NCBI GenBank assembly: GCA_016969615.1
Contig: GCA_016969615.1_4548.1
Length of the DNA: 38,485 bases
Reading direction: 5' to 3' (one strand)
Source of the DNA: a phage
Numbering within the stretch: the first letter of the stretch is position 1; each line of letters opens with the position of its first letter. Shown piece by piece: positions 1 to 38,485 of the stretch. Under the pieces are notes generated by a model. The model was given only the letters and a program-made list of their open reading frames with translations. It had not been told where the DNA came from and did no database searches. Position numbers and translations under genes: made by a program.

Positions 1-648
1 GCTTCGCAAGGCCGCATCACCGACACTAACCCACGCTCCTAGCCCAATGCCACCAGACGTTTCAGGAGTGGAACCAGCAGGAACGTTCTTTGGAAGCGTA
101 CCATCCCAGCGGTAATAATCACCATCCTCTTCCCATAGCAGGGCCTCGTTCCATGTTGTAACGTTGAAGCCTTTCTCGAAGGAGCGACGGGTAATATAGC
201 CAACTAGACCAGCTGCCTTGATTCTCTCAGCGATTCGTCGTGCTTCGTCCTCGCTATCCTTAGCGTTGCCAGCAGAGCTACCAGCAGCATCGGCATATTC
301 CTTCGCTAAGTCAACAGTTTGGTCTCGACCTTCTTCTGCAATATGGATAGCCTGAAGCTCTGCATTGGTCAGGTCACTAGCTGTCAACACTGAGCCATTC
401 CTGAAGTCTACCACTAAGTCAGTTCCAGTCTGACGGTGAATACGAACGATGTCGAAACCTGATTGGTCAACCAACATCTCAATCATCGTTGGATTAAGGA
501 ATCGGTAATCTCGACCAACTTCCAGTACACGGTTCAGGGTGGGGTTAGAGCTATTCACCAGCGTAACAACAACAAACGTTCTGGCTAGGTATTCGAACTC
601 AATCCTGTACTGAGTGTTTCCTGAAGGGAATTGTGTAATCGTGGACAT
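1..648 (-). CDS. gp17: Tail fibre/tailspike protein, N-terminal adaptor domain (5' part only; ORF runs off the window start)
   Basis: ATG at 648..646 after AAAGGAGG; 216 codons open to position 1; translation [32 protein letters not shown]...[12 protein letters not shown]...[10 protein letters not shown] matches the conserved T7-family gp17 N-terminal domain. Confidence 0.85.
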
Positions 649-698: not shown

Positions 699-716
699 CC
701 TATAGTGATAGTTTAG
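699..716 (-). promoter_or_regulatory. Phage RNA polymerase promoter core upstream of gene 17
   Basis: plus-strand cctatagtgatagtttag = minus CTAAACTATCACTATAGG; 11 copies of this core in the window; overlaps gp16 stop. Confidence 0.8.
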
Positions 717-3700
717 TCCTTGATGTGGATACCTTGCTCCTCAAACGTTCCAAGCAACAGCTTCTGGGTAATTGGGTCGTTCGGAACCAGTTCACGGAAC
801 GTATTATACATCCCGGTCATGTAGTCACGCTCGTTGACACGAGTATCGGCCTTGAGGTAGCCAGCCAAGTTGTAAGCCGAAGCGCCAACGTTAGCAGCAT
901 ATCCGAAAGCTGGAACCTGCTCCAAGAAGTTACCAACAATATTCATCACAGGGTCACTTGTAGCTGCACCATACGCGATGGCACGTTCAGTCTTCTCTGT
1001 AGACGAACGAGGTAGGATAGACGAACGGAGCATCTTAGTGTCCTCGTACCCAGCGATACCACCAAGAATGTTAGCTACCCCAAGTGGTCCACCGAGATGT
1101 GAACTACGGGACAGAGCCGCATAACCAATCATCGTCGGGTCCAGAGCTTGCTTGAGGTAGTCACGGTCACGACCATCCTGCATAGCGTAAGCCTTGATGT
1201 GTGCCTGAGCCATGTAGTAGATACCAGCAAGACCCATAGACATCACAGTGGACAGTGCAGCGTCAATCGCTCTGTTGTTCTTCGTGGCGTTATAGAAGGT
1301 TCGCATGGTTCTCCCATTGATGGACTTGATGACGAAGTTCTTAAACTGAAGGACAGTCTTAGCCAGAGGGCCATAAGCCTTGGCGTCCATGTTACTCAGC
1401 TTGTGTGGACGAAGCAATGTCTCGTCAGCGATGGTGTCGCCCATACGCCACAGGTCCATAGCCCTTGGGTCCTGACTAAACGCCTTCTTATCCTTGATCG
1501 TGTACTTCCCGTCTGGACCACGCGTCACTGACTCACGGATGAGGGACTTAATGCCCTTCCACTGCTCGTCAGAGATACCAGCGGTCTTCAGCCATCGGTC
1601 ATCGAACTTACGCTTACTACCAGTCAGGCTATGCTCCACGATGTCAGATAGGAAGCCTTGACGTCCAGCATCTAACAGGTAGTTGGTCGTACCGTTTAGG
1701 ACTTTAGTGAACGGAGAGCGTACGGCAAGTTCACCAGTGTAATACTTGGCAGTCCCCAGAGCTGTAGCTGCACCACGACCGAGGTCACTGTAAGACCGCA
1801 GACGGTCGATGACATCCTGTTTAGACGGACGGATTGAGTCATCCAATTCTTTACCGAAGAGAACACTATGCAGGTCCTTAATCTCTGAGGCCCCTACCTT
1901 CTTGTTACGGAAGGCTAGGTCACGGAACATCGGGACTCCATGCAGCAGCGCACGAACGTTGCCACGAGCCAGCATGCCTCCAATCTCCGTTAAGTTCTGA
2001 ACACCCATGTAGGCATTCTTAGCGAAGAACGATAGGTCTGTCATTGTGCGCATCACGGTAGCGAAGGCTGCATCATCAGCACCATCACGTCGAGCACGAC
2101 CAGTTAGAATCTTCAAGGTGTCACGTAAGGTAGATACCTCACCTTTCAATTTACCGTCATCCCCAGCCTTGTTCATCATGGTCTCAACCAAGTCCTTCAT
2201 GTCCTTCGTGGTTTTGCCTGTACCAGCCATGATAGCAATATCGCCATTAACTCGACGGTTGTAGGCCGGGACAATCTTGTCCATGTCCCACTCACGCAGG
2301 TTGTTGACACTGAAGGTCTGACCGTTAGGAAGGACGATTGACATATCGCTATCGAACAGGTTACGAGCCTCAAGGAAGCTGTTGTTCTCCAGACCAACCA
2401 GACCGTTGATGTTCTCTTCCATTACGGATGAACGTTCGAACTGCTCGGTGTGAGAGATACCGTAAGCCTTATCGTTGGCGTACTTATCGACCGCAGCAGA
2501 AAGTCCCTCTGGAGTCAACGTAGGGTCAGCCTCTAAGAGTGCCTCGTCCACGCGTTTCTTGACTTCAGGTCGAGACGCATAGCTGGTCAACCATGACTTC
2601 TTGATGGCCTCCTGCAACGCCTCTGGACTCCCAAGCTCCTTGATGTACAGCTCCTTCATCTGTTTGCTATACACATGAGGGACGTAGGTCCCCTTGAATC
2701 GGCTACCCGGAAAGATAGACTGAGCGTCTGGACGACCAAACATAGCTGGGTTCTCCATCATCTCACGCTTGGCGTCAAACTGGTTCTTCAGTAGGTCATA
2801 GACTTTCAGCTCTCCCGGAGTCAGTTCAGCCTTCAGGTTCCCACTACCATCTTCGATAGCCATGGACACACGCTGGTAGATGTCCTGACGGAATGCACCA
2901 GAGTCTCGCCAGAATGCTGTCTGGAAGTACGGGTCCTTTAGTGCCTCAGTAACCGCATCGTCGATGTCGTTGTAGAACCGATGGTCCACAGCACGAAGTC
3001 TCTCGAACACGTCTGACGCAGTTGTCCCGATTTTACCTGAGGCCCCAGACTGCATACCAGTTGGTGAACGCACTAAGTCAGCAGCTACTCCACGAATCTC
3101 AGGGTTCTCAGACCGAAGCAGCTTCAGACCAATCTCGGTAAGTCCGCCAAGGTTCACGCCAGCAGCTGCACGTTCCGGCTCAATCACTTCGTCAAAGACT
3201 TGACGTGTCTTAGGGTTCAGAGGGTTCTCACCAATCAGGATTGAACCATCTTCCAGTCGTACACTACCCGGCTCGTTCGGAACGTCAGCGAACTTAACAC
3301 CTTGATGACTAAAGGTCTGCTCACCTTCCTGAATAGGTAGACGAGACAGGTCCTGACCGTCAACATTACGTGCAGTCTCACGGGCTTCCAGACGTGTGGC
3401 TGGACCAGCAAACTCATTAGTGTTGCGGCCCAAGGCTCTTCCTAGTCCATCAGCGATAGCAGTCATACCACCACCGAATAGAGCGCCACCAAGGATAGCT
3501 TCAGCCACATGAGCATCACCACCAGCCACTGAGGTACGGGCCATCTCAGACACACCAGCCAGTGCTCCGGATTGAGCCGCCACGGTGAACATCTTGTTTA
3601 CCAGTTTACCTCCTTTACCCACCTGTCCAGCAATCGGAACGTATGTCAGAGGGTCAACGCCAGCGCCAATAACACCAGCAGCCAACTGAGCACCAGTCCC

Positions 3701-4600
3701 AGCCTTGGCCTTCTCTTGGTCCAACTTCTGGTTCTCAAGCGCCAAGTTAATAAGCTCGGTCAGGTTCTGAGGAGAGCCACCAGTAATGACTCCGTAATAC
3801 TGAGGCAGAACCCCAGCGTTACGAATCTGGTCCAGCTCCTCACGCGACCACTTATGGTTGTTCCATCTGGTCGGGTTGAACACATCACCAATGACATCCA
3901 GTGAATCCTCAGTCTGGCCAGCTCGGATAGCCACGCCGACCATAGAGTTCTTCACTTCAGCTTCTGCAGCAGCACCGAAACCGAACCACGTAGAGCGATC
4001 CTCTCGCTCCTGCATGGTCTCTCCAGTAGCCTTATAGAACATCTCACCGAACGATTCGTTGGGAGCTTCAGGTGCTTGACCCTCAATGTTCAGACCAGCA
4101 GCGGTCGGAAGGTTCTCACCCAGAGCTACTTTAGGTTTAGCCTTGAGTCCTTCCGTGAGTGCGTCAAATACGTTAGCGCTTACTGGTGGAGTCTTTGGGC
4201 TGATACCGTTGAGTGCTCTTGCTACTCCCTGTTGGTAGACTTCAGGGTCGTACCGGGAGCCTGTCTCATGGAAGCTGATAGCTTGCGCCAGAGAAGACAA
4301 GGTGTCCGGGTTCGAGAGGTCGAGACTCTGGGTAGCTGGGATACCAGTCGCAGCCACCACTGAGTCTATATAAGCCTGAGTGTCGTTCTCATTAGGAGGT
4401 GCCCATCGGTTGATAATCTTCTCGATGGAGTCATAACCTTGGCGACCGTAGGACAGCAGGTTTTTACCTAAAGCTCGGACGCCAGACTCTGGACTATCGA
4501 AGGTGACGAATGCGCCATCATCTCCAGTCATTCCTTCCCATTGGTCCTTACTTACCCGGATGTTACCCGGATTGTTATTGCGAATACCACGAGTCGCCAT
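713..4600 (-). CDS. gp16: Internal virion (core) protein D
   Basis: 1295 aa; long blocks align with T7 gp16 (RSTWFGFGAAAEAE..., TRWNNHKW..., AGVIGAGVDPLTYVP); follows gp15 as in T7. Confidence 0.93.
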   Translation of the reverse strand: MATRGIRNNNPGNIRVSKDQWEGMTGDDGAFVTFDSPESGVRALGKNLLSYGRQGYDSIEKIINRWAPPNENDTQAYIDSVVAATGIPATQSLDLSNPDTLSSLAQAISFHETGSRYDPEVYQQGVARALNGISPKTPPVSANVFDALTEGLKAKPKVALGENLPTAAGLNIEGQAPEAPNESFGEMFYKATGETMQEREDRSTWFGFGAAAEAEVKNSMVGVAIRAGQTEDSLDVIGDVFNPTRWNNHKWSREELDQIRNAGVLPQYYGVITGGSPQNLTELINLALENQKLDQEKAKAGTGAQLAAGVIGAGVDPLTYVPIAGQVGKGGKLVNKMFTVAAQSGALAGVSEMARTSVAGGDAHVAEAILGGALFGGGMTAIADGLGRALGRNTNEFAGPATRLEARETARNVDGQDLSRLPIQEGEQTFSHQGVKFADVPNEPGSVRLEDGSILIGENPLNPKTRQVFDEVIEPERAAAGVNLGGLTEIGLKLLRSENPEIRGVAADLVRSPTGMQSGASGKIGTTASDVFERLRAVDHRFYNDIDDAVTEALKDPYFQTAFWRDSGAFRQDIYQRVSMAIEDGSGNLKAELTPGELKVYDLLKNQFDAKREMMENPAMFGRPDAQSIFPGSRFKGTYVPHVYSKQMKELYIKELGSPEALQEAIKKSWLTSYASRPEVKKRVDEALLEADPTLTPEGLSAAVDKYANDKAYGISHTEQFERSSVMEENINGLVGLENNSFLEARNLFDSDMSIVLPNGQTFSVNNLREWDMDKIVPAYNRRVNGDIAIMAGTGKTTKDMKDLVETMMNKAGDDGKLKGEVSTLRDTLKILTGRARRDGADDAAFATVMRTMTDLSFFAKNAYMGVQNLTEIGGMLARGNVRALLHGVPMFRDLAFRNKKVGASEIKDLHSVLFGKELDDSIRPSKQDVIDRLRSYSDLGRGAATALGTAKYYTGELAVRSPFTKVLNGTTNYLLDAGRQGFLSDIVEHSLTGSKRKFDDRWLKTAGISDEQWKGIKSLIRESVTRGPDGKYTIKDKKAFSQDPRAMDLWRMGDTIADETLLRPHKLSNMDAKAYGPLAKTVLQFKNFVIKSINGRTMRTFYNATKNNRAIDAALSTVMSMGLAGIYYMAQAHIKAYAMQDGRDRDYLKQALDPTMIGYAALSRSSHLGGPLGVANILGGIAGYEDTKMLRSSILPRSSTEKTERAIAYGAATSDPVMNIVGNFLEQVPAFGYAANVGASAYNLAGYLKADTRVNERDYMTGMYNTFRELVPNDPITQKLLLGTFEEQGIHIKD

Positions 4601-27796: not shown

Positions 27797-30478
27797 TTAA
27801 GCGAATGCAAAGTCTGAAGACAAGATGTCTTCGATATTCAGTTTACCTTTCTTCGGAAGCTCTGGCAGCTTGTCGCGCTGGCTCTCATGAAGCTGGTATT
27901 CAAACTGCTCATAGAAGTCAAGCAGCACATCGTTGTCGCGGTAGGTCTCGACCATCGTCTCACGGACACCACGGAACAGATACTCAGCGTCAGCCGGGAT
28001 GGTCCCGAAGCTATCGTGAATCACTGCGAATGACATCACGCCATACTTGCGGTGAGTGTGGACTACAGTCTTGCGGAGGTGGCAGCCATCTTGTGAGTGG
28101 ACGAAGTTCGGGCTAATTCCTGACTCCTGCTTGTGCTTGTCCAGATCTTTCTTCATGCCTTTGTTGACGGTAGGCTGAAGGTTAAATGATCCTAAGAACA
28201 TCAGGTTCAGACGCGTGGTATCCTTCTTGCGGTATTCCTGCCAGACCGGGAACCCATCAGGTGTGACCCAGTGTACCGGAAGGCAAGGCTTCAGGATTTC
28301 ACCAGTCTTCTTGTCTTTCACTTCAGCAGCAAGCAGCTTGGCAGCACCTTGAAGCCACTTCATCGCGTCAACCGCAGCGACTACAGTCACAGACACAGCT
28401 TCCCAAATCATCTTAGCCATGAAGCGGGACGCTTGGCTTGGTTCGGTGAACATAGCGCCAGACCCTGAGTCAATTGCTGGCATCACGATGTCCTCGTAAA
28501 CTTGGTCTGCAAAGCCGTACTCTTTCGACCCGTAGGCCAGAGTCATGACTGAGCGCTTAGTAACCTTGCGTGACATACCGTAAGTCAGCCACTGCCGGGC
28601 CAGCTCTCGTGTCCCCAGCTTGAGACGTTCGGTAATCTCACCAGTCTTCTTATCCTCATGAGTGACCATCTCGTTGTCCGTACCATTAACCAGCAGGACT
28701 TTAAGCTCTTCCTCAATGCGGTCAGATACGATGCGGTAGATGTCTTGGACCTTACCGGAAGGCGTCAGGTTTACTGCATGTCCACCGATGTGATCACGAA
28801 GCATCGCGCTAAAGTGCTGAATCCCAGAGCAGGACCCATCGAATGCTATCGGCAGCGAGCAGGAGTAAGACAATCCGTGATGCATTACGCCAGCATACTC
28901 GAAGCAGAACGCTAGGAAGCAGAACGGAGAGTCTAACTTTCCCCACCACTCAATGCTGTCCATCGGTGCCTTAGCGGCAGCCATGATGTTGTCGTGGTTG
29001 TCTTCCACCCACTTGATGCGCTCCTCGAAGGTTACTTTATCGACACCCGCGCAGTTTGCCCCGTGGACCTTCAGCCATTTGAAACCGTCGGCCCCAATAG
29101 GCTTACCGACCGCCAGAGTCAGAAGACCCTTTTGCATGTCGTTACCTTGAGGGTTGAACATCGGAACAGCGTATACACGACCTCGCCAGTCCATATTGTA
29201 CGGAAACCATATGGCCTTGAACTGAGAGAATTTGTTCGCTTGGTTGACTATAAAGCTCAGTGACAATCTTCGCGACCGCCGGGCCTTCTCTCGGCGGTAG
29301 ATGCCAGCAGCAGCCTTCTTCCATGCCTTGAGTTCCTCTTCAGTATCCCCCGCATAGTCTTCAGGCTTCAGCGGCTCCATCTGAGGGATGTCGTCAATAG
29401 GCGTGTTATTCAGCTTCTCGACCTTGTTCACCACGTCCAGCACCTTCTTGTTCACTTTCCAAGGCGTATTCTGGATGATATTCACAGCGTCATAGACTTC
29501 AGGCATGTACACATCTTCGTAGCGTGCCACCGCAGACTTAGACCCTAAGCGAATCAGTGGTAGTGGTCTGCGACCTTTGGCCCAGTACCCACCGCCTACG
29601 ACACCAGTCCACGGCTTAGGTGGAACGACGCAAGGCTGGTAGACTGGAGCGATACCCGCAAGGCTGAATCCTCGTTGTGCCATCTTCTTGACCCAGAAGT
29701 CTGACAGGTGGACCATCTCAACGTCAGCCGCTACATTACCAGCACCGTAACGCTTAAGCTCAACCAGTTGTGTAGACTGGATGACAATCTCAAGCATCTT
29801 GATGCCAACGTGTACCGCTTCGGTCGGACTCCAAGTACCCCACGCATCTTCCAGCTGACCCTGCTCCAGCATGGAGGTCTCAACCGCTTGCATGTAGGCT
29901 TTCTTATAGGATGCCCCGGCTCGCTTGTTCAGGTTCTCAGCTATCGCCTTCTTGAAGTGCGCCTGCTCCTTGTCTCGGATTCGACCGAAGCGGATTTCAT
30001 CTTCAAGTGTGCGACCTATCGCGGAGGCCATCGGTGTAATCGGTATACCTTCAGGCTTGACCAGCTTGGAGAGGATGACCTTCAGTATGATAACCGCAGC
30101 AGACTCACAGGAGATGTGCAAAGAGCGGTCCTTGACGGCCTTCTCTTCAGTGCTCAACATGGTGAACGCTACGCTCGGACGTGAGGTTGACAGCTTCCCG
30201 TCTTGACCTTCATGCCACTCCCTGACGGCTTGCGCAATCTTAGGAACCAGAGTCTGCATCAAAGGCTTGGCTACCTGATTGTCTGCCAGTTCCCCGCGCT
30301 CAGTCTGTCGCTCAAGGTTCTTGATGAAACGTCGCTCGCCTTCAGTGTATGCCTCATGCTCAAGCTGAAGCTGTTTGACTGCAAGGTCTTGCCCGTAGTG
30401 GTCAGCCAGCAGGTTAAACGGCTCAATGGCGTTCGACACATCGGAGAAGTCGTGTTTGTCAATAGGGATGACTCTCAT
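27797..30478 (-). CDS. gp1: DNA-directed RNA polymerase (single-subunit, T7 type)
   Basis: 893 aa; near-continuous alignment with T7 RNAP (PFCFLAFCFEYAGV.HHGLSY.CSLP.AFDGSCSGIQHFSAMLRD, HDSFGT, FAFA C-terminus); specificity-loop region differs from T7. Confidence 0.97.
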   Translation of the reverse strand: MRVIPIDKHDFSDVSNAIEPFNLLADHYGQDLAVKQLQLEHEAYTEGERRFIKNLERQTERGELADNQVAKPLMQTLVPKIAQAVREWHEGQDGKLSTSRPSVAFTMLSTEEKAVKDRSLHISCESAAVIILKVILSKLVKPEGIPITPMASAIGRTLEDEIRFGRIRDKEQAHFKKAIAENLNKRAGASYKKAYMQAVETSMLEQGQLEDAWGTWSPTEAVHVGIKMLEIVIQSTQLVELKRYGAGNVAADVEMVHLSDFWVKKMAQRGFSLAGIAPVYQPCVVPPKPWTGVVGGGYWAKGRRPLPLIRLGSKSAVARYEDVYMPEVYDAVNIIQNTPWKVNKKVLDVVNKVEKLNNTPIDDIPQMEPLKPEDYAGDTEEELKAWKKAAAGIYRREKARRSRRLSLSFIVNQANKFSQFKAIWFPYNMDWRGRVYAVPMFNPQGNDMQKGLLTLAVGKPIGADGFKWLKVHGANCAGVDKVTFEERIKWVEDNHDNIMAAAKAPMDSIEWWGKLDSPFCFLAFCFEYAGVMHHGLSYSCSLPIAFDGSCSGIQHFSAMLRDHIGGHAVNLTPSGKVQDIYRIVSDRIEEELKVLLVNGTDNEMVTHEDKKTGEITERLKLGTRELARQWLTYGMSRKVTKRSVMTLAYGSKEYGFADQVYEDIVMPAIDSGSGAMFTEPSQASRFMAKMIWEAVSVTVVAAVDAMKWLQGAAKLLAAEVKDKKTGEILKPCLPVHWVTPDGFPVWQEYRKKDTTRLNLMFLGSFNLQPTVNKGMKKDLDKHKQESGISPNFVHSQDGCHLRKTVVHTHRKYGVMSFAVIHDSFGTIPADAEYLFRGVRETMVETYRDNDVLLDFYEQFEYQLHESQRDKLPELPKKGKLNIEDILSSDFAFA

Positions 30479-30575: not shown

Positions 30576-30836
30576 TCACTTGCATATCAGTGGGTTAGCG
30601 TGAAGATGACTGAAGTCACCATGAGTCGTATGCTTGATGGTTGACCGTTGGTCTATCGCCTTCCAGCCTGAGACCAGAAGTTTACCATCGTCAGTGATTG
30701 GTCGTCCACCATACGCCAGACACATCAGTTCGGACTTATAGCCCTCAGCCCGGAGTCTTGCTTGCAGTACACGGTCGCGCTCCTGCTGTTGACGTGCGGA
30801 GTGTGAAGAGTGGCGGTGAGTGTATGTAGATTTCAT
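30576..30836 (-). CDS. Hypothetical 86-aa early protein
   Basis: ATG overlaps (ATGA) the stop of the restored HNH reading frame; no domain recognised. Confidence 0.55.
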   Translation of the reverse strand: MKSTYTHRHSSHSARQQQERDRVLQARLRAEGYKSELMCLAYGGRPITDDGKLLVSGWKAIDQRSTIKHTTHGDFSHLHANPLICK

Positions 30837-31248
30837 TGTTGGTGCTCCTGTAAGTATTTGATTGCTCTCGCCAGCAGTTCCTGCGAGTCGTTAAATTTTC
30901 CCAGAGTGGTGTTACATGAAAAGCAGAGAAGACCTCGCACCTTCCCCCCGTGGAGTGGCAGTGGTCTACTGCGAGTCGTTGCCCTCTAGTCTCTTCCCCT
31001 GCACATATCGCACACACTCCACCCTGCCTCTCAAGCATCGCATCGTATTCTTCCACAGTAATCCCGTACAGTCTTTTAAGGAAGGATTTGCGCTGCACAT
31101 TCTTGAAGCTCTCTTCATTGCTGCGCTTTTTTCGTGCCAAATACTTGCAGGCTTTGCATTGATTTTCGTAACCATCCTTATGCCCCAGATGTTTATAAAA
31201 ATCAGTCAACGGCTTTAATGTGTGACACTTCTTGCATATCTTTTCCAT
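30833..31248 (-). pseudogene. Endonuclease VII-type HNH endonuclease, reading frame broken at a C6/G6 homopolymer
   Basis: 0-frame gives ...GGVCAICAGEETRGQRLAVDHCHSTGG then off-motif residues; the -1 frame after the six-C run at 30944..30949 reads KVRGLLCFSCNTTLGKF... (canonical Endo VII motif) and ends TGA overlapping the next ATG. Confidence 0.75.
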
Positions 31249-31445
31249 CACAGCTTACTTCCCAAAGTTGCTATATCCCAGACGTTCGCGAGGTTGCGCA
31301 TGAATCGTCCGTTAGGTTGACGTACAGTCCAGCGGCCCGGACGTACATAGTTGAATTTGTAGACTTTACGCGCCTTGTTAATGTCTCTCATCAGCACGTA
31401 GGCGATAAGTCCATAGCCTATGACTATCAATAGTGTTATACTCAT
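31248..31445 (-). CDS. Small membrane protein (65 aa)
   Basis: N-terminal hydrophobic helix MSITLLIVIGYGLIAYVLM; stop overlaps the HNH start; ATG overlaps the stop of an upstream 29-aa ORF. Confidence 0.5.
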   Translation of the reverse strand: MSITLLIVIGYGLIAYVLMRDINKARKVYKFNYVRPGRWTVRQPNGRFMRNLANVWDIATLGSKL

Positions 31446-35684: not shown

Positions 35685-36476
35685 TTAAGAGTTAAAGATG
35701 CGGTCAACGCGAACAGTCAGGGAGGACAGAGTAAGGTCCTCAGACCCGGTAACTGCAATGCCAAGCGTAATGCCAGTAGTAACGAACGGGTCGTCTGTAT
35801 TAGCTATGTAGCTATGGATGGCCGCCTCACGAATGGTGAATGACTGCTGGTCATCTGTGTCCGTCACGGAAGATAGGGTAGTGTTATCTGGTCTACGAAG
35901 CTGCACTCGCCACTTATGAGCTGAGGCTGTAGGGAACTCACCAGCGAACCGAACGACGAAGTTTACACCACTGAGTCCCTCTTTAGCTGGGAACAGCATC
36001 TTTCCTTCCGAGATAGTAACGACGCCGCTATCCACTCCCTTCACTAAAGGAAGAGTCATTAGGTTAGTGAACTGTCCCGCAGCACACACTTGGGTTCCTG
36101 ACCAGCTGAAGGTATCCAGAGAATACTCAGCGTGGGATACAGGACGTGACTCCCGATAAGTATACTCTACCTTAACCAGTCCGACGCCACTGTCATTCAG
36201 CTTGGTGACTTTAAGAATCAGGAAATCGTCTTCTGTGATACCATCCACTTCCAGACGTATACTGCTTGATTGTAGAGGCCAGTCGCCACCATCGGAGAAA
36301 TTACCAGTAACAGACGTACCGTCGCTTAGTGTAATCCTTGTAGACTCGGCGTTAGCTGGGACCTTCACGTATATTGTACCAGATAACAAGTGACCGGATG
36401 CGTTCTTCAGTCCAGATGGTGTACCAGTAGCAAAATGCCAAACTACGTCAGTTTTCAAAGTAATAATATTACCCAT
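35685..36476 (-). CDS. Hypothetical 263-aa protein between the spanin genes and the terminase gene
   Basis: ATG 36476 after AAGGAG (7 nt), overlaps gp18.5 stop; Thr/Ser/Gly/Val-rich, no TM segment, no motif recognised; no gene at this position in the T7 map. Confidence 0.8.
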
Positions 36477-37486: not shown

Positions 37487-37556
37487 AAAACCTCCAGTTT
37501 AAAGCGGGTCGTCCGTGACCCAAAGTTGTTACCATACGTTGGTCAGCGTGTAGTTA

Positions 37557-38485
37557 TCACTCAAACCAAGTTGATATTTTGTAAGTGATTGAACCGCGAA
37601 TGGTTGCTGATGATGTAAGATCTTCATTTGTCAATGGCGAGGTTGATGATCCATCTACTAGCTTGTAAAAATCTAATGTTGTTGAATTTCTTTCCATAGA
37701 TATACAAATCTGACCAACACCAGAGCTAACCCCACTTACCCTTGATATGGTCCCAGATGCCACATCGGACGATGCGTAAGGTAGATTTCTAAACCGTAAC
37801 TGTCCGGTTTGACCTCCCGCACCATTGAATGAAATATCAAATTCAAGGGTAATTAAACCACCTTCTTTTCTCAGTTTTACGTCTTTTGTGGCGCCACCTA
37901 TGTCAGATGTAATATCCCCGAAAGTTATCACCACAGAAGAGTCAAGAACCGAACTAAGGGAGAAGGGTTCAAACACGACAAGGTTAGTACTGCCTCCTTT
38001 GTAGATATAACTATTGGTAGGTGTGTTGTACCGCACTGTGTTACCCTCGCCACTACAAGCAACACGTGGGATTGTATTGCCGCCGAATGAGCCACCATTG
38101 AACACAATGTTATTCCCAGTACTATGTATCCAGAGGTCACGACTATATGAAGTGTCTTGACCGAACACTAAGAAATTATTGAAGGTGAGGTTGTTATCAC
38201 TATGCACAGATAACAGGTTACCTGTACCACCTGCCGGTAAGATATAAAAGTCTGTAAGTGTCATGTCATTACCTTGCTGAAAATGACCCAGGACTCCAAG
38301 GGCAGCATCCTGTGTAGTGGGTAACTCAGCACCACATCCTGTAAGATTAAAGCCGTTGTTATTATCAAACCAGTACGCGCCATACACTGTACCATCAGAC
38401 GCACAGCTTCTCATATTACCATACTGCTGGTTGCTAATTCTAAATGCACCAGGCGTTACTGTAGGGTCTGTAACCTTAGCAAATA
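37557..38485 (-). CDS. gp17: Tail fibre/tailspike C-terminal receptor-binding region (3' part only; ORF enters from beyond the window end)
   Basis: open frame from the window edge to TGA at 37557 (308 codons), then holin as in T7; visibly AT-richer than the rest (about 35-40% GC in sampled lines); no similarity to T7 gp17 C-terminus recognised. Confidence 0.7.
   Translation of the reverse strand, partial: FAKVTDPTVTPGAFRISNQQYGNMRSCASDGTVYGAYWFDNNNGFNLTGCGAELPTTQDAALGVLGHFQQGNDMTLTDFYILPAGGTGNLLSVHSDNNLTFNNFLVFGQDTSYSRDLWIHSTGNNIVFNGGSFGGNTIPRVACSGEGNTVRYNTPTNSYIYKGGSTNLVVFEPFSLSSVLDSSVVITFGDITSDIGGATKDVKLRKEGGLITLEFDISFNGAGGQTGQLRFRNLPYASSDVASGTISRVSGVSSGVGQICISMERNSTTLDFYKLVDGSSTSPLTNEDLTSSATIRGSITYKISTWFE

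Follow-up and report, generated by a model that had tools for sequence, protein, structure and literature searches.

F-CphI is a characterised free-standing homing endonuclease that uses the endonuclease VII (Endo VII) motif, and its residues D101, H102, R110 and N118 have each been found to be essential experimentally (PMC6083498). Presence/absence mosaicism between conserved neighbours is a hallmark of free-standing homing endonuclease genes (PMC6083498). The phage locus described here resembles F-CphI in that the gene stands free, is flanked by conserved phage genes and encodes the Endo VII motif in the C-terminal half of the protein, and the spacing of the four F-CphI residues is identical to that of D95, H96, R104 and N112 in its intact relatives. 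It differs in phage lineage and in the N-terminal region, and the copy studied here is frameshifted and has no equivalents of the arginine and the asparagine. T4 endonuclease VII (gp49; PDB 1en7, 1e7l, 2qnc), a Holliday-junction resolvase, has the same Pfam family (PF02945), beta-beta-alpha-metal core and 4-Cys zinc site. However, the loop from HxH to GKVRG is longer in the T4 enzyme, which also has a C-terminal domain for dimerisation but no N-terminal zinc ribbon, and it is an essential resolvase, whereas the nuclease described here is encoded by an optional gene. The best match among solved structures, both in sequence and in fold, is Hpy99I (PDB 3fc3), a beta-beta-alpha-Me type II restriction endonuclease (sequence match E = 2e-9 over residues 2–136). 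Because this match includes the N-terminal Cys-rich DNA-binding part, it suggests that the phage nucleases and Hpy99I have a DNA-recognition module in common, although Hpy99I, a restriction enzyme of bacteria, possesses an additional N-terminal domain (200 aa) and is only 28% identical. Endo VII genes of other Studiervirinae are of the same family, size (∼125–150 aa) and architecture, and some of them occupy the same slot with ATGA coupling to a gp0.38-like gene; however, they show only 50–54% protein identity to the allele described here.

The window, by which we mean the whole stretch of 38,485 nt that was analysed, is a piece of a Kayfunavirus-like T7-type phage genome in which every gene with a Bas105 reference match lies on the minus strand. 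It starts inside a tail-fibre gene (1..648, encoding the N-terminal 216 aa with a 96% match to Bas105) and ends, upstream of the holin, with a C-terminal tail-fibre part for which no Bas105 match was found (37487..38485). Since the ends do not overlap and the tail-fibre gene shows no single-frame read-through across the junction, we take the window to be broken within the divergent receptor-binding region and not to be a closed circle. Two genes elsewhere in the window differ in length from their Bas105 counterparts. The gene at 35685..36476 (minus strand), located between the genes for an Rz-like spanin and for the large terminase, has a product of 263 aa versus 140 aa in Bas105; the Bas105 protein matches it in two same-frame pieces that lie ∼363 nt apart (36354..35990), which in the alignment reads as ∼121 aa inserted in frame. 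In the gene for the gp16-like internal virion protein at 716..4600 (minus strand), ∼162 residues (Bas105 residues ∼691–852) are missing at 2531..2545, also in frame. Bas105 gp16 has 1462 aa, and gp16 of Mt1B1_P3 is shorter as well (3888 nt).

The early region carries, upstream of the T7-type RNA polymerase gene, a gp0.6-like gene, an Endo VII-type nuclease gene and a gp0.38-like gene in this order, the last one being located just upstream of the polymerase gene. The TGA of the gp0.6-like gene and the ATG of the nuclease gene (at 31248, minus strand) have one base in common. Exact-sequence look-up of both neighbour proteins of the nuclease gene yielded no record. The features of the locus are as follows:

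31248..31445, minus strand: gp0.6-like upstream gene, 65 aa, conserved; left border of the variable slot.
30833..31248, minus strand: Endo VII-type (beta-beta-alpha-metal/HNH) nuclease gene, 137 codons in two frames joined at the G run; 95% identity to the intact 137-aa proteins of the closest cluster.
30946..31248, minus strand: frame-0 homologous part, codons 1–101; zinc ribbon C5, C8, C31 and C34, two helices, C79/C82 and strand beta1 with D95-H96-x-H98.
30944..30949, minus strand: G6 run (C6 on the plus strand), frameshift site; +2 expansion of ACG-GGG-AAG (G4) in intact relatives.
30943..30949, minus strand: formal X_XXY_YYZ heptamer G_GGG_GGA, codons ACG GGG GGA, in phase with frame 0.
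30833..30943, minus strand: −1-frame part, 36 codons plus stop; strand beta2 (KVRGLL), C-x2-C-N with the catalytic Asn, metal-binding helix and C-terminal helix.
30745..30942, minus strand: out-of-frame tail of the raw 167-aa product (RCEVFSAFHV...KTPG, then stop), entering the gp0.38-like gene by 92 nt.
30576..30836, minus strand: gp0.38-like downstream gene, 86 aa, conserved; right border of the variable slot.
27797..30478, minus strand: T7-type RNA polymerase gene.

Read in frame 0, the nuclease gene encodes MEKICKKC...AVDHCHSTGG and continues with the unrelated RCEVFSAFHV... up to a stop at 30745, which gives a raw product of 167 aa with a 92-nt overlap into the gp0.38-like gene. The minus strand at the break reads CAC TCC ACG GGG GGA AGG TGC, and its G6 run is the sole G/C homopolymer of at least 6 nt across the 38,485-nt window. 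From 30943 onwards the −1 frame encodes KVRGLLCFSCNTTLGKFNDSQELLARAIKYLQEHQQ followed by a stop and thereby restores KVRGLLCFSCN...; its TGA overlaps the ATG of the gp0.38-like gene as ATGA (30833..30836). The original prediction, made from the letters of this DNA, had described a break straight after DHCHSTGG at the C6 run 30944..30949 as well as a −1 frame that restores the motif and ends with a TGA overlapping the next ATG, and we found both the coordinates and this reading to be correct. Its assignment of the gene to the Endo VII-type HNH nucleases agrees with the Pfam search: the raw product matches PF02945 (Endonuclease_7) at profile positions 4–50 of 82 with 45.8 bits and the spliced product at positions 4–81 of 82 with 96.6 bits, both above the curated cut-off of 23.6 bits. 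The spliced protein aligns end to end with uninterrupted homologs. We regard the two-frame gene as confirmed, far beyond chance. In a search of 5.8 billion protein clusters the out-of-frame tail found no homolog and no database protein covered more than 61% of the raw product; the tail is thus common to nothing in the database. Exact-sequence look-up of the raw 167-aa product gave no record. Otherwise the nuclease copy is undamaged: the restored frame is free of stops, the DNA is ∼97% identical to that of intact copies, and only three amino-acid changes (P21L, V22G and H36Y) are private to it. We considered these changes as a sign of relaxed selection and dropped the argument because the positions are variable in the family and other cluster members carry one to three private changes, too.

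For the relative that is intact and 95% identical (cluster P0001), an AlphaFold model with a mean pLDDT of 96.1 was obtained from a 42-sequence alignment. The model displays an N-terminal four-Cys ribbon, three helices, a strand at 93–96 (AVDH) and a turn at 97–102, followed in the C-terminal half by a strand at 103–107 (VRGLL), a helix at 109–117 with C111-N112 and a C-terminal helix. Foldseek searches with this model returned Hpy99I (E = 2.5e-6) and T4 endonuclease VII (rmsd ∼3 Å over ∼86 residues), in agreement with the sequence-level matches of both proteins over the full length. Within the 42-sequence alignment C5, C8, C31, C34, C79, C82, D95, H96, H98, L106, L107, C108, C111 and N112 are invariant, and G101, R104 and G105 are nearly so. 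The frameshift falls into the hairpin turn between the two beta strands, after G101, and R104, G105, L106, L107, C108, C111 and N112 are all located downstream of it. Frame 0 retains C79, C82, D95, H96 and H98 but not R104, C108, C111 and N112; neither frame holds the full catalytic set, which is complete only across both frames in combination. Strand 1 is still present in the raw product, whereas strand 2, the Arg, two of the four zinc cysteines, the Asn and both C-terminal helices are gone. Mutants of T4 Endo VII (N62D) and of F-CphI (N118) are inactive. Having lost the invariant Arg, the catalytic Asn and two zinc ligands, the raw 167-aa product should be nuclease-dead.

The nature of the lesion becomes apparent from the relatives. 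The closest cluster in the search of 5.8 billion protein clusters (P0001; 95% identity, 137 aa) has 15 members, all of which read DHCH[S/A/T]TGKVRGLLC with a single Gly. Two retrieved contigs (L004 and L005) carry the intact gene, ACGGGGAAG, in which ACG GGG AAG forms a run of four G (G4); the DNA of the run was read for these two of the 15 close relatives and the other 13 were compared by protein. The window and the two contigs have 650 bp in common at 95.6–95.8% identity, and the two extra G's are the sole indel. Distant same-slot alleles (IMM-002, Esher7 and CHRF_10022) encode T-G-K by ACx GGx AAG. The spacing from HxH to RG amounts to exactly 5 residues in 129 of 134 homologs, and the pattern is absent from the other five for different reasons; a longer loop at this place was seen only in the distant T4 Endo VII. 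The arrangement GGxVRG, with an extra Gly, occurs in none of the 134 homologs, and the frameshifted arrangement was found neither in the 15 close relatives nor among the 134 homologs. Since the relatives encode T-G-K with G4 DNA, the window is to be read as G4 plus two bases and not as G7 minus one. The aligned sequences indicate that the intact state is four G and that the window carries two extra bases; with a G7 run or a −1 slip the frame would be recovered, at the cost of an additional Gly found in no relative. This revises the earlier view of a seven-C run from which one base is missing: compared with the relatives, the run is two bases too long. It also means that the observation proposed at the time as decisive, reads showing seven Cs, was mis-specified, because intact relatives have G4 and no homolog carries the extra Gly. 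Scanning IMG/VR with a DNA pattern of the run and its flanks and JGI metagenomes with a run-length-tolerant pattern yielded no match, and a protein-guided scan of IMG/VR returned only relatives of at most 57% identity.

We were also interested in the distribution of the gene. With a 1-kb query around it, 208 phage records matched both flanks at ∼92–95% identity and none of them contained the nuclease gene. In these gene-less phages the slot holds 70–135 nt of unrelated filler, which in Bas105 is fused in frame to the gp0.38-like gene, and the slot has its junctions at the gp0.6-like stop and the gp0.38-like start. The nuclease gene is optional: it is inserted between genes that are conserved and adjacent in relatives without it. 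In a few Kayfunaviruses the same slot is occupied by an Endo VII gene (IMM-002 gp08, Esher7 and CHRF_20120), representing at least two further alleles with ∼50–54% protein identity, and in phiYeO3-12 and EcoDS1 such a gene is found at the position of gene 13.5. None of 50,697 deposited phage records contains the window-type allele, which was found only in 15 metagenome-derived sequences (ENA/Logan assemblies), where it is intact. We consider the intact alleles to be putative homing endonucleases.

Same-slot alleles examined at the DNA level are all intact except for the one in CHRF_10022, and the others appear as single pieces in tblastn. In CHRF_10022, a Salmonella phage (L001, PQ336901.1, 1501–1952), the allele is annotated with 106 aa versus 150 aa, and its break is an A7 to A6 change relative to the sister Esher7 (L003, 1501–1953), from CTCTAAAAAAAC to CTCT-AAAAAAC. 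Either a nuclease gene in the slot has been broken at a homopolymer a second time, independently, or the record contains a sequencing error. Three Endo VII alleles are near-identical in DNA over their final ∼35 nt (30833..30870 on the minus strand and the equivalents in L002 and L003), GCAATCAAATACTTACAGGAGCACCAACAATGA, despite an overall protein identity of only ∼50%. This segment encodes AIKYLQEHQQ and the stop and includes GGAG as well as the ATGA at which the downstream gene starts; its conservation may reflect a translation-initiation constraint of the downstream gene or a recombination boundary. Past the nuclease stop, ∼95 nt of the two contigs with the intact gene (L004 651–745, L005 595–690) cannot be aligned with the window (30803..30832), and their downstream gene encodes 110 aa versus 86 aa in the window. 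The right-hand slot junction itself is mosaic.

For the origin of the G6 run, the earlier reading had left a sequencing error, a recent inactivating mutation or a −1 slip as alternatives. This list contains the likely answer, while its last entry found no support. We consider it probable that a real indel has turned a mobile nuclease gene into a pseudogene, and we infer that the lesion is biological rather than an artefact of assembly. The homopolymer break in the same-slot allele of CHRF_10022, located at a different run, supports genuine decay, although it may be an error as well. If the mutation is real it is recent, since the copy is otherwise undamaged and ∼97% identical in DNA to intact copies. 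The same lack of further damage would also be expected if the gene were in truth intact and G6 had been miscalled from a run of G4 (canonical) or G7 (extra Gly), an explanation that we regard as possible though clearly less probable. It would fit with the position of the lesion, as 30944..30949 is the longest G/C run in the window and platform errors concentrate in such runs, and with the fact that the frameshifted product occurs in no other assembly. However, a true G4 would require a 2-base homopolymer overcall, which is an unusual error on any sequencing platform. For a true G7 one can argue that the loop of T4 Endo VII is longer at this place, so that the G7 protein could plausibly fold, but a real +3 expansion unprecedented in 134 homologs would then have to coincide with a −1 miscall. 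If the true run were G5, the gene would be dead anyway. The remainder of the window also speaks against a miscall, as it contains no further frameshifted gene and its other homopolymers match the relatives. The other matching Bas105 reference proteins, whose matches cover 85% of the window, align in a single frame or in two same-frame pieces caused by in-frame length differences. Of the other runs of at least 5 nt, seven are located in intact frames and two, within the nuclease gene itself, are the same as in L004; 82 runs of four bases are likewise located in intact frames or match L004. Because other genes are unbroken and other runs match the relatives, the assembly is not generally homopolymer-sloppy, although this test is of limited power.

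Programmed −1 ribosomal frameshifting on G_GGG_GGA, which would make the nuclease translationally regulated, was the remaining suggestion. The in-phase GGGGGGA heptamer that it invoked is indeed present at 30943..30949, as read directly from the sequence, and in this formal respect the site resembles those of dnaX and of IS911/IS3-type elements; moreover, the −1 frame restores the whole motif together with the ATGA coupling to the next gene. Unlike those sites, however, the one in the window has no stimulator, is not conserved and contains an inefficient heptamer. The 15 close and all distant homologs are single-frame, with G4 or GGC-type codons, the out-of-frame tail is unmatched in 5.8 billion clusters, and the shifted product would contain the extra Gly seen in 0 of 134 homologs. 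A search for a stimulatory structure in the 94 nt downstream gave −15.2 kcal/mol versus a shuffle mean of −18.4 (z = +1.17), a stability not exceeding that of the shuffles, an Rfam search returned no match, and no SD-like sequence was found in the 20 nt upstream of the heptamer. A terminator-like hairpin at 30947..30925 was discarded as a stimulator, as it starts inside the heptamer and is G-U-rich; terminator-like hairpins occur at chance level (2 found versus 2.0 expected from shuffles). Productive transcriptional slippage takes place on longer, mostly A/T runs, and we rejected it for this 6-nt G/C run on general grounds. A phase-variable (contingency) homopolymer locus was likewise considered and rejected; the tract of the relatives is 4 nt long and 15 of 15 are in frame. 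In E. coli, GGGGGGA without stimulator shifts at 0.037 ± 0.008%, at or below the no-motif background of 0.055 ± 0.031%, and reaches 0.22% with IS911 stimulators and 1.07% with the IS3 pseudoknot, which places it among the least efficient of 64 heptamers tested (Sharma et al. 2014, PMC4066793). Since the in-phase heptamer is the only hallmark of a programmed site that is present here, we consider regulated frameshifting exceedingly improbable.

An adventitious leakiness of the ‘savior indel’ type, in which G6 nearly silences a costly nuclease while trace activity survives through background −1 slippage, G6 to G7 revertants or initiation at GTG 30940 after the SD-like G run, is very unlikely as well. 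A precedent exists in herpes simplex thymidine kinase, where G-run indels are accompanied by very low-level compensatory frameshifting (Atkins et al. 2016, PMC5009743). Both cases involve a G-homopolymer indel in a viral gene with a theoretical trace product by slippage, but the thymidine kinase state is drug-selected and its compensation demonstrated (PMC5009743), whereas the locus in the window shows no sign of selection or of any product. G-rich motifs can serve as SD for −1-frame initiation (Sharma et al. 2014, PMC4066793). A GTG-started ORF of 35 aa does begin 3 nt past the run; however, the fragment is without the Asp-His strand and would need trans complementation. A spacing of ∼3 nt from SD to start is also too short, the expected yield of slippage is about 0.04%, and there is no sign of selection, the state being unique to this genome. 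We find it highly improbable that G6 is maintained since it throttles a costly homing nuclease to trace levels. Such throttling would rely on −1 slippage on G_GGG_GGA or on G6 to G7 revertants at each burst, and on an active extra-Gly enzyme whose beta-strand turn would tolerate insertions as in T4 Endo VII; if true, it would constitute a phage analogue of the herpesvirus thymidine-kinase ‘savior indel’. Even taken jointly, the leaky and the regulated scenarios are improbable.

We thus return to the pseudogenising indel as the preferred explanation. An optional free-standing Endo VII-type nuclease gene, homing-endonuclease-like, sits between two conserved early genes, and replication slippage would have expanded G4 (ACG GGG AAG, Thr-Gly-Lys) to G6 and inactivated it. 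Ribosomes would leave the conserved frame after Gly101, and the resulting protein of 167 aa would retain the zinc ribbon and, from strand 1, the Asp-His, with DNA cutting lost together with strand 2, the Asn and zinc ligands. The present state would be the decay phase that a selfish nuclease gene passes through in its life cycle, and not a recoding device. The finding neither opens nor settles a long-standing question. For annotation it means that the locus would best be entered as a (pseudo)gene with a frameshift, coding for an Endo VII-type homing nuclease whose intact form has four G's, and not as two small ORFs or as a recoding site. Judged by its family, its fold and its behaviour in genomes, the locus is a further, probably broken member of the free-standing nucleases with an Endo VII motif, F-CphI-like and in architecture closest to Hpy99I. 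Its allele group, not represented among deposited phage genomes, is intact in 15 metagenome-derived sequences. Together with CHRF_10022 the locus would be an optional Kayfunavirus early-region nuclease gene broken at a homopolymer, which fits a cycle of invasion followed by decay.
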